A stretch of 64,000 nucleotides of DNA from Lachnospiraceae bacterium (GCA_045617945.1 JAZLJS010000101.1:11529-75528); one strand, 5' to 3'. Shown: positions 9,443-37,560, numbered from the stretch's first letter. Program-made: numbers and translations. The notes: a model not told the origin generated them from the sequence alone.

Positions 9443-9527
9443 ATGCAGTACATTCTGGAGTATCTCACCGGAAACGCTCGACTCGTAGAAATAGGATTCG
9501 GAGAATCACTCGTAGAAACACACTTTA

Positions 9528-9887
9528 TACCGATAAGATTTGCAAAAACGCGATTTTTATCGGTACGTTTTTACTCGAAAATTGAGCTGCGTACCGATAA
9601 GATTTGCAAAAACGCGATTTTTATCGGTACGTTTTTACTAAAAAAACGGGTTGCGTACCGATAAGATTTTTAAAAACTCAATTTTTATCGGTACAATCAG
9701 TCTATAAATGACGTTTTTCATACCGATAAGATTCTTACAAACGCAATTCTTATCGGTACGTGCGTTCTAAAATGTCATATTTTATACTGATAAGATTTCC
9801 CAAAACCCATTTCTTATCGGTACTTGCACCTCAGAACGACAAATTTCATACCGATAAAATTCCCCAAACCGCGATTCTTATCGGTAC
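9528..9887. repeat. Array of six 39-bp palindromic elements on a 64-65 bp period
   Basis: TACCGATAAGATT-N13-AATCTTATCGGTAC-like units at 9528, 9592, 9656, 9721, 9785 and 9849. Copies 1 and 2 are identical. The arms are conserved and the centres diverge. The 25-26 bp spacers are partly related to each other. Confidence 0.9.
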
Positions 9888-35801: not shown

Positions 35802-35828
35802 TATTTAAATTTCCTGAAATTTTTGAAA

Positions 35829-35858
35829 GGGAATCGGCGATGCCGGTTCCCTTTTTTG
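35829..35858 (+). terminator. Rho-independent terminator after the ferredoxin gene
   Basis: GGGAAtCGGC-gat-GCCGgTTCCC followed by TTTTTTG. Confidence 0.75.
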
Positions 35859-36031
35859 TTATGGCGACGAAGAGAATAGACTTCGTGCTTGCACGAAAGG
35901 ATATTCGACGACCGCTAATCATAGATGCTGCTCGCGAAGCGGATTCCGAATGATAAGGAATTCGGAGAGTTCCGATAACAAAAATATAATTTGCAAGCGA
36001 CGCATGCCTGTTTGCATCACTCATTGTGGCC

Positions 36032-36080
36032 GGAATATGTTGTGGATGAATGGAATATGTTGTGGATTAACGGAATATGC
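36032..36080. repeat. Tandem repeat, 20 bp x about 2.5
   Basis: GGAATATGTTGTGGAT(G/T)AA(T/C) is repeated. Confidence 0.8.
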
Positions 36081-36146
36081 GCGTTTGGTTTACATAAAGT
36101 CACATGTGCTTTCGTGTCCTGTGTCTGGAGAAAGAAATCTGAGTTC

Positions 36147-36335
36147 ATAGACACAAAATGGTTTACATAATTCCGCACCACCAAACGATTCAGGTCGCTT
36201 TTGTGTCTGAAATGATAAAAAACGGAATCTAGACACAAAATTAGTAAAACATCAAGTTTACATAAAATCACCCATTTCATTTTTGTGTCTACGCAGCTTT
36301 AAAATCTGTTATAGACACAATTATAGTTTACATAA
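36147..36335. repeat. Cluster of AGACACAA/TTGTGTCT inverted motifs and GTTTACATAA direct motifs
   Basis: TTTTGTGTCT-N22-AGACACAAAA (36199-36240) and TTGTGTCT-N22-AGACACAA (36283-36320). GTTTACATAA at 36161, 36256 and 36326, with another copy at 36088. Confidence 0.8.
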
Positions 36336-36360
36336 CGCAAACCTGCATTACAATCCGAGT

Positions 36361-36417
36361 GAAATTACGATAATATGGATCGAAATTACGATAATATGGA
36401 TTGAAATTCAATAATCG
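36361..36417. repeat. Tandem repeat, 21 bp x about 2.7
   Basis: GAAATTACGATAATATGGAT(C/T) at 36361 and 36382, plus a partial third copy. Confidence 0.85.
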
Positions 36418-36579
36418 GCTTGACATATTGTGTATTGATGATATCATATTGATATCAAAAATAATCATTGTGTTCCAAACATATATCAGAAACGCCGCAA
36501 ACATAGCATCGCTACGCAGCAAATAGATGCTTTGGAACATTTTGAGTAGATCGGTATGAGACGTGAAAGGAGTTTTATT

Positions 36580-37560
36580 ATGGAAGAGAAAATGTTAAAC
36601 GGTAAAAAGAACGGAATGGCAATGCTTTTATTACTTATTTTATTGATGGCAGGATCAATTGCAGGAATGATATTCGGCGGCGTGAATGGATGGGGATGGC
36701 TGGTCGCTCTGTCGATAATCATATTGATTACATCATTTATTTTGTTGGCCGGTTTGACGGTATTGAAGCCGCAGGAGGCGGTTGTCCTTACTTTGTTCGG
36801 TAATTATGTCGGAACATTGAAAGGTGAAGGTTTCTACTATGTAAATCCTTTTTGCAGTGCTGTGAATCCTGCAGCGAGAACGCGTCTTTCTCAAAGCGGC
36901 GATGTAAGAGATAATTCTGCGGCAACAGCTGCTGCAGAAGGATCTTCCAAGAAACTTTCATTGAAGATAATGACCTTGAATAATTCCCGGCAGAAAATCA
37001 ACGATTGCCTCGGTAATCCTGTTGAAATCGGTATTGCGGTTACATGGAGAATTGTTGATACGGCTAAAGCAGTATTTAACGTAGAGAATTACAAAGAATT
37101 CTTATCATTGCAGTGCGATACCGCACTTCGTAACATTGTTCGTATTTATCCTTATGATGTTGCTGAAAATGTGGATACAACAGGTGACGGAATTGCAGAT
37201 GAAGGTTCTCTTCGCGGATCCAGTGAAGTAGTTGCGGCCAGAATTAAGGAAGAGATTCAGAAACGTGTTGAGGAAGCCGGTATTGAAATTGTAGAGTCCA
37301 GAATTACTTATCTTGCATATGCACCTGAAATTGCTGCTGTTATGTTGCAGCGCCAGCAGGCTTCCGCTATTATTGATGCCAGAAAGATGATTGTTGATGG
37401 TGCCGTTGGTATGGTGGAGATGGCAATCGATCGATTGAATGAAGGCGGTCGCGTAGATCTTGATGAAGAACGTAAGGCTGCGATGGTATCGAATCTGCTG
37501 GTTGTTCTGTGCGGCAATCATGATGCTCAACCTATTGTGAATTCCGGAAGCTTATATTAA
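36580..37560 (+). CDS. SPFH/band-7 domain membrane protein
   Basis: ATG at 36580 lies 7 nt after AAAGGAG. Two N-terminal TM helices. SPFH core ([54 protein letters not shown]) and a C-terminal coiled region. Confidence 0.8.

Follow-up and report, generated by a model that had tools for sequence, protein, structure and literature searches.

A four-unit array of 82-bp composite palindromic repeats in a mosaic intergenic spacer of a Lachnospiraceae bacterium: a possible protein-docking platform

Organization of the spacer between the ferredoxin and SPFH genes

The locus lies in a 64,000-nucleotide stretch of DNA from a Lachnospiraceae bacterium (GCA_045617945.1, JAZLJS010000101.1:11529-75528), referred to here as the window; positions are counted from its first letter. 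The ferredoxin gene is followed by its intrinsic terminator on the plus strand (35825-35855), which consists of a 14-bp stem and a T-tail and was detected by both the terminator scan and the repeat finder. On the other side of the spacer, the plus-strand gene at 36580-37560 encodes an SPFH/Band-7 protein (Pfam PF01145, E 8.6e-20), its start codon ATG at 36580 being preceded by AGGAG within an ORF open from 36556.

The gap of about 700 bp between these two genes is a mosaic of five independent elements arranged end to end, in the 5' to 3' order of a Clostridiales-1-type RNA, a 20-bp tandem repeat, an array of 82-bp period, a 21-bp tandem repeat and the SPFH promoter. Most of the spacer is ordinary, consisting of an RNA in a known motif class, the promoter of the downstream gene and slippage repeats; the array is what deserves attention. 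The first-pass annotation, made from the sequence alone, had described the spacer as a non-coding region packed with several unrelated repeat families. All the items that it listed were found at the place given or within 1-2 bp. The ORFs of the region have no Pfam match, and the array shows no coding signal.

A short Clostridiales-1-like RNA

The segment 35854-35983 on the plus strand carries a short variant of Clostridiales-1-like RNA with a three-stem fold, detected as a match to RF01699 and by its MFE fold. It is the sole Rfam match in the region, with a cmscan score of 37.6 bits (E 1.8e-6 in a 1-kb search) that does not reach the gathering score of 48, and the alignment spans the whole RF01699 model, positions 1-166, including the conserved GCUUGC hairpin apex. 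In the whole-genome search with RF01699, the window RNA was not listed at E of 0.01 or below. The closing stem UUUUGUUAU/AUAACAAAA was found by the repeat finder to be complementary at 10 of 10 positions. The independent MFE fold of the same segment gives three stems in agreement with the RF01699 alignment, at -39.9 kcal/mol (z -3.56), and none of 200 shuffled sequences folded equally well. The small hairpins near 35885 and 35945 listed in the first-pass annotation are real by both folding and the terminator scan, which marked terminator-like sites on the minus strand at 35881-35898 and 35962-35975.

The same genome contains two full-length RF01699 members, scoring 141.3 and 127.0 bits, and a sibling copy of short architecture (C110:7967-8094) that scores 62.8 bits, above the gathering threshold. 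The C110 copy and the window copy have the closing stem, the middle segment and the 3' hairpin in common. We read 35854-35983 as a putative short, somewhat degenerate member of the Clostridiales-1 motif class, because its fold matches and because the C110 sibling passes the threshold. In the description of the motif by Weinberg et al. (2010; PMC2864571), Clostridiales-1 is a probable non-cis-regulatory RNA from Clostridiales and the human gut. The window RNA resembles this class in its closing stem, in the 5' hairpin with GUGCUUGCAC apex and in the 3' GGAAUUCG hairpin, but it lacks about 36 nt, its middle hairpin is truncated and its score is sub-threshold. The earlier suggestion of a structured ncRNA locus fits these 5' 130 bp and not the region as a whole, and the Rfam covariance-model scan proposed along with it yielded this below-threshold match and no family for the array.

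The window RNA and a partial copy on C99 both start exactly in the T-tails of unrelated terminator hairpins (at 35825-35862 in the window and at C99:13150-13300). These starts of two short-variant copies suggest either placement in 3' UTRs or a habit of insertion that targets terminators.

Promoter of the SPFH gene

At the opposite end of the spacer, the plus-strand segment 36420-36457 was recognized as the SPFH promoter/operator by the promoter scan (11/12 with TG) and by comparison of orthologues. It is the best promoter match of the region, with TTGACA at 36420-36425, a gap of 16 nt and an extended -10 element, TG-TATCAT, reaching to 36447. A direct repeat, TGATATCAtatTGATATCA, at 36439-36457 overlaps this promoter. 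The arrangement TTGACA-N13/14-TGATATC-N4-TGATATC is located upstream of all six same-genus SPFH orthologues, the upstream neighbours of which all differ. Among 80 orthologues from other Clostridia (loci L086-L165, from Lachnospiraceae, Oscillospiraceae, Acutalibacteraceae and other Clostridia), TGATATC-N4-TGATATC was found with two or fewer mismatches within 300 bp upstream in 79, at a median distance of 35 bp from the start codon.

Since this element is kept across the orthologues, 36420-36457 is predicted to be the SPFH gene's own conserved promoter of sigma-A type, with a TGATATC operator. The possibility that the array forms part of the SPFH cassette was rejected, as none of the 80 orthologues or the six same-genus copies carries an array upstream; everything to the left of 36420 is thus, as judged from the comparison of orthologues, outside the cassette. 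The SPFH gene and its promoter look like a portable, self-regulated cassette, and the TGATATC-repeat promoter is a ready candidate operator for this widespread accessory cassette.

Short tandem repeats

Two short tandem repeats flank the central block. By Tandem Repeats Finder, the 20-bp unit CGGAATATGTTGTGGATGAA is repeated 2.5 times at 36031-36079 (annotated before at 36032-36080), and the 21-bp unit GAAATTACGATAATATGGATC is repeated 2.7 times at 36361-36415 (annotated before at 36361-36417). Within this genome, both unit sequences are unique to the window locus. The genome as a whole contains 422 tandem-repeat loci, or 157 per Mb, of which half lie in the non-coding DNA that makes up about 10% of the genome and about 17 lie in the window; samples of two congeners gave densities of 61 and 100 per Mb. 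A short tandem repeat was found in 11 of 16 array flanks, its unit being different each time. We read the 20-bp and 21-bp repeats as products of a genome-wide tendency to short intergenic duplication, with an enrichment in long spacers such as these, and not as parts of the array. These two duplications are young.

Structure of the 82-bp array

The central block, 36076-36346, is a single composite unit of 82 bp repeated to form a four-unit array, of which the first unit is truncated. Each unit consists of TTTGTGTCT, 22 nt with an A/T centre, AGACACAA, a linker of 5-6 nt, GTTNACATAA and about 28 nt of further sequence. The repeat finder placed the starts of the palindrome units at 36117, 36199 and 36281, at successive distances of 82 and 82 bp. 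Individual units were scored with R1, a covariance model of the unit tolerant of covariation in the arms, and all are on the plus strand. Unit 1 (36076-36108) is a remnant in which GTTTACATAA alone is kept (36088-36097), giving a weak match of 11.6 bits; its palindrome has been lost beside the 20-bp repeat, and the array at C87 is truncated likewise. This segment was assigned to unit 1 because the N5, N5, N6, N6 order of linkers in complete arrays places it there. Unit 2 (36116-36197, 51 bits) reads TGTGTCT-N22-AGACACA-N5-GTTTACATAA. In unit 3 (36198-36279, 40.6 bits) the palindrome is intact and the motif at the canonical position is degenerate, a perfect GTTTACATAA at 36256 being shifted to 18 nt past the arm with the 82-bp period maintained. 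Unit 4 (36280-36346, 60.9 bits) reads TGTGTCT-N22-AGACACA-N6-GTTTACATAAC.

The elements listed separately in the first-pass annotation fall into this scheme. Its two long inverted repeats were recovered by the repeat finder as TTTTGTGTCT-N22-AGACACAAAA (36199-36240) and TTGTGTCTA-N20-TAGACACAA (36283-36320), and the four copies of GTTTACATAA start at 36088, 36161, 36256 and 36326, those at 36161 and 36326 lying 5-6 nt past the right arm. A third palindrome, TGTGTCT-N22-AGACACA at 36120-36155, had been overlooked. Since the inverted repeats and GTTTACATAA belong together in a single 82-bp unit, the description as unrelated families does not hold for them.

A family of arrays in the genome

A scan of the 2.69-Mb genome with a looser pattern detected ten arrays with 34 units, all outside long ORFs: two on C22, one each on C48, C70, C87, C90, C98 and C101 (the window), and an inverted pair on C50. 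The BLASTN search that had been proposed for the repeat found no similarity among 72,556 plasmids or 50,697 phages. Of the 26 intervals between units, 22 measure 81-83 bp. For the composite TGTGTCT-N20-24-AGACACA-N4-7-GTTNACATAA, the genome has 27 occurrences versus none for the reversed-pattern control, and for the bare palindrome 32 versus 3 in the control.

The six complete arrays all contain four units, in the order N5, N5, N6, N6, and their motif variants match: in units 1-2 the linker is 5 nt long and is followed by GTTG/GTTT, and in units 3-4 it is a 6-nt ATTTTN sequence followed by GTT(T/A)ACATAACAT. The arrays are therefore homologous as wholes.

GTTTACATAA is present in 70 copies in the genome versus about 12 expected, many of them located 5-6 nt past AGACACAA and recurring at 82-83 bp. 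It was also considered as a genus-wide operator, being over-represented in 25 of 25 congeners. In the own genome, however, 39 of its 70 copies are in crude coding DNA, and for this reason the excess is taken as k-mer bias and not as evidence for a regulator. GTTTACATAA also occurs in tandem arrays free of the palindrome, at C70:5516-5594, C78:166310-166355 and C13:154887-154907, with periods of 39, 15/30 and 20 bp, respectively.

Pattern of conservation within the units

Across the units, the arms show 97.5% pairwise identity, while the outer loop positions are 31.6% identical versus 25% expected at random from composition. The five central loop positions are 83-100% A/T, and the bases adjoining the arms are purines to the left and pyrimidines to the right. 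The period is maintained despite the saturation of the spacers. With motifs about 97% identical and spacers random, long-lasting selection on the motifs is needed.

Covariation in the arms, examined over 33 units, gave a score of 0.089 versus a shuffled mean of 0.093, and 299 of 500 shuffles scored at least as high. Among the 8 core arm pairs, 4 are invariant and none shows two-sided change; of the 10 pairs tested, only the innermost does so. No Rfam family matched the window array or the eight other array loci. The units contain no conserved -10 box or terminator, and the scan for intrinsic terminators, which have a G+C-rich stem, a loop of 3-8 nt and a T-run, gave no site in 36076-36346. The pattern of conservation is one of selection on specific DNA words and geometry and not on an RNA fold or a coding frame.

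Distribution and genomic surroundings of the arrays

The composite does not occur in any of 40 relatives, among them 24 species of the genus; in these genomes the bare palindrome is found at control frequency. The search for relatives with a diverged array, carried out with the covariance model on 200 genomes of the order, gave a single weak singleton and was set aside. The strict pattern was found 0 times in a collection of genomes from 185,579 species, in IMG/VR and in a metagenome collection, near-identical genomes possibly lying outside these collections. In the literature, the motif strings matched only primers and unrelated sequences. The nearest sampled species are about 91% identical in LepA, which makes it plausible that the family is lineage-specific and its spacers saturated. 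The 82-bp array family thus appears to be lineage-restricted, with one sampled species, and is apparently undescribed.

The neighbours of the arrays are functionally diverse: ferredoxin and SPFH, LepA and an esterase, IspF-CysS and tRNAs, IorA and a transporter, an EssC-like ATPase, and a large adhesin. No gene for a DNA-binding protein lies beside any array, and no recombinase was found in the array flanks inspected. A search for Y1 (RAYT/IS200-type) transposase, PF01797, gave none in the own genome, the control search being positive in 6 of 14 reference genomes. When the edges of the arrays were inspected by eye, target-site duplications and element-wide terminal repeats were not seen. Orientation of the arrays is mixed with respect to flanking transcription and also to GC skew (7 anti, 3 co); this lack of uniformity led us to reject polar sites of Ter, KOPS or Chi type.

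The array at C98 is located at the lepA edge of a 14-kb block between rpsT and lepA, two genes that are adjacent in a congener. This block (C98:149541-163619) encodes an esterase, three zinc-ribbon membrane proteins and two surface proteins (989 and 1828 aa); it is without a recombinase and has the G+C content of the contig. At the C22b array, the gene upstream of ispF is unlike that in most relatives. A tRNA gene lies 109-647 bp from the end of unit 4 at 3 of 9 loci (C22:94509-94659, C48:2407-2487 and C90:22732-22803) versus 2-4% of long intergenic segments (P about 0.005), and its 3' end always faces the array. One unit spacer at C90 holds a 13-nt copy of the tRNA-Trp T-arm; 13-mers recur by chance throughout the genome.

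Two other repeat families are found near the arrays. A palindrome family with a period of 64 bp forms about 17 arrays of 3-8 units (mostly 4-8), including the window copy at 9527-9887, and its arrays lie less than 5 kb from 82-bp arrays at three loci, C22, C90 and C98, the latter two flanking lepA. A fold-back element of about 230 nt (...AATCTGCC...GGCAGATTAAAGAAGTAGCCAAGCACAAGCAAG...) is present in four copies (C18:57548, C48:856, C50:58591 and C90:22418), three of them less than 2 kb from an 82-bp array and the fourth beside an array of the 64-bp family; the C90 copy, when scanned, gave no Rfam match. Taken together, because of the synteny breaks, the nearby tRNA genes and the co-localized repeat families, the arrays favour junctions of variable DNA.

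At C50:57733-59376, two inverted half-arrays of 2 units each flank 1.3 kb of DNA and constitute an inverted repeat of 80 bp with about 93% identity. The cargo of this segment comprises a gene for a small helical protein, a fold-back element and a gene for a double-glycine-leader peptide with a weak match to the Bacteriocin_IIc leader. The segment may be invertible or rearranged.

Possible functions of the array

Based on the pattern of conservation, we give about an even chance to the array being a phased docking platform at the DNA level for one or more sequence-specific proteins, as a family of REP/BIME-like kind. Each unit would offer a 36-bp palindrome with arms TTTGTGTCT/AGACACAAA about 29 bp apart from centre to centre, an obligatorily A/T-rich and probably bent palindrome centre, and a second, asymmetric site, GTTNACATAA, 5-6 bp past the palindrome. 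A protein or a pair of proteins could then contact both arms and the adjacent asymmetric motif, and four such units at 82-83 bp might support cooperative assembly into one higher-order complex. Candidate roles for this complex are that of a platform of recombination or integration and, where variable DNA is joined, that of a boundary or insulator. Several observations stand against docking. The period of 82.3 bp corresponds to 7.8 turns at 10.5 bp per turn and would be integral only if the DNA were overwound or wrapped, and the arm separation of 29 bp is unusual for a simple dimer. The family occurs in a single sampled species, so that function cannot be argued in the usual way from conservation between species, and placement at synteny breaks and tRNA genes suits the history of a mobile element equally well.

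That history is the substance of a rather unlikely alternative, in which the array is a non-autonomous repeat of REP/BIME, BOX or MITE kind that is selfish or spread by recombination. It would then be devoid of host function, and any protein recognizing it could only be a trans-acting transposase or recombinase. The family is dispersed and lineage-restricted as such a repeat would be, and the surroundings agree with it: the C98 copy at the edge of the 14-kb insertion between rpsT and lepA, the altered gene upstream of ispF at C22b, the proximity to tRNA 3' ends at 3 of 9 loci (P about 0.005), the co-localized fold-back element and second palindrome-array family, and the inverted half-arrays around the 1.3-kb cargo at C50. 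However, the genome is without Y1 transposase, the flanks examined are without recombinase, and inspection by eye detected neither target-site duplications nor element-wide terminal repeats. Divergence is also not uniform as in transposed copies, given motifs about 97% identical next to random spacers, and the four-unit format and the period are fixed. Should the binder be a recombinase, the docking and selfish readings would overlap. An action of the array as RNA, namely as successive hairpins of a 3' UTR or sRNA that stabilize transcripts or bind a protein, appears improbable. REP hairpins act in this way in E. coli mRNAs, a hairpin of 8-10 bp is possible in each unit, the window array follows a terminator and a structured RNA, and several arrays lie downstream of gene 3' ends; but no compensatory change was found in 33 units, the arm sequence being invariant, and loops of 22 nt with A/U centres make weak hairpins. 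The mixed orientation (7 to 3), the lack of an Rfam match, and the asymmetric GTTNACATAA with a strict 82-bp period, for which there is no obvious RNA rationale, likewise argue against an RNA role.

The first-pass annotation had also raised an iteron-like nature of the region, and a replication origin or partition site of plasmid or phage type, left by an integrated replicon and combining DnaA boxes, iterons and an AT-rich unwinding element, was considered in this connection. Such an origin is very unlikely and, as an origin or DnaA-box cluster, largely refuted. In its favour, the 20-bp repeat has TGTGGATGA and TGTGGATTA, both one mismatch from a DnaA box, the 21-bp repeat is AT-rich, and the array is iteron-like and resembles sopC. 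The two DnaA-box look-alikes are, however, not significant, one-mismatch boxes being expected about 0.15 times per 700 bp by chance and the two copies not being independent. Moreover, a single genome of 2.7 Mb has ten array loci, the other arrays are flanked by repeats of unrelated sequence that have no DnaA boxes, the neighbours are housekeeping or surface proteins without rep/par genes, the GC skew shows no switch here, and the plasmid and phage collections gave no match. Of the other possibilities named in that annotation, a protein-binding, operator-like region is supported at the 3' end by the SPFH promoter and is where the conservation of the central block points, and the scar of a mobile element is compatible with the placement of the central block at a synteny break and near tRNA genes, which also fits a mobile or recombination-linked origin; neither accounts for the whole region.

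Several known element types were examined and rejected. The units are not sigma-70 promoters: GTTGACA contains TTGACA, but the other arrays are without a conserved -10 element at 16-18 nt. A CRISPR array, in which identical direct repeats of 23-47 bp alternate with unique foreign spacers in open-ended number, does not agree with two alternating motifs in a fixed set of four units with positional identity, and the longest matches of 56 spacers were distributed as in control intergenic DNA, against CRISPR-like acquisition of spacers. As to integron attC sites, in which RYYYAAC and GTTRRRY core sites flank cassette ORFs, GTT(T/G/A)ACA is unlike GTTRRRY and there are no ORFs between the units.

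The docking reading can be carried one step further, more doubtfully, to include both repeat families: the 82-bp and 64-bp arrays might be landing pads of an undescribed protein-DNA system with two motif types, a bent A/T centre and a four-unit nucleoprotein body, marking the junctions between core and variable DNA, among them the edges of islands and sites close to tRNA genes. If so, they would serve as domain boundaries or insulators, or as platforms of integration or recombination, and arrays of this kind, with a motif that differs from one bacterium to the next, may be present in many gut bacteria. The architecture of the 82-bp array is unusually clean, with two motifs, an obligatory A/T centre, a period of 82 bp and four units. 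Because its motifs are under unmistakable selection and the intervening sequence is randomized, it makes a well-defined bait for a DNA-binding protein in this uncultured lineage of gut/rumen Clostridia.

Comparison with known repeat and centromere systems

REP/BIME elements are found in enterobacteria and pseudomonads, as BIME-2 arrays and REPIN clusters, and are bound in known cases by IHF and gyrase. The window array is similar to them in being extragenic, in occurring at many loci and in the regular arrangement of short palindromes with fixed linkers; the genome thus has the dispersed extragenic palindrome arrays of this class but not its RAYT. The number of loci is about ten and not hundreds, the arms are 7-10 bp across 22 free bases and not a tight imperfect hairpin, and here there is a second asymmetric motif, a fixed set of four units and one sampled species. 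The BOX element of Streptococcus pneumoniae, boxA-boxB(n)-boxC, is a modular intergenic repeat and shares with the array its presence in Firmicutes, the intergenic location, an internal tandem module and the positional identity of modules. BOX elements are, however, similar over their full length and fold as RNA, whereas here the motifs alone are kept and there is no support for pairing; compensatory base changes, the mark of a structured-RNA repeat, were not found.

Among plasmid centromeres, sopC of F has 12 repeats of 43 bp that each contain an inverted repeat of 7 bp, and parS of P1 has two motif types on either side of an IHF bend. The array is like sopC in its tandem units each with an inverted repeat, and like P1 parS in its two motif classes and in the A/T-rich, presumably bent centre between the arms. 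In contrast to these centromeres and to iteron origins, which occupy a single locus with adjacent rep/par genes, the arrays are chromosomal and multi-locus, with a period of 82 bp and without an adjacent parA/parB-type gene. The closest counterpart within the genome, the 64-bp family, has the same conserved palindrome with A/T centre, strict period and many intergenic loci; it differs in its motif, ACCGATAAG...CTTATCGGT, in its 4-8 units, in being without a second asymmetric motif and in its far more homogeneous loops. The array adds an example from Firmicutes to the poorly understood phased arrays of extragenic palindromes.
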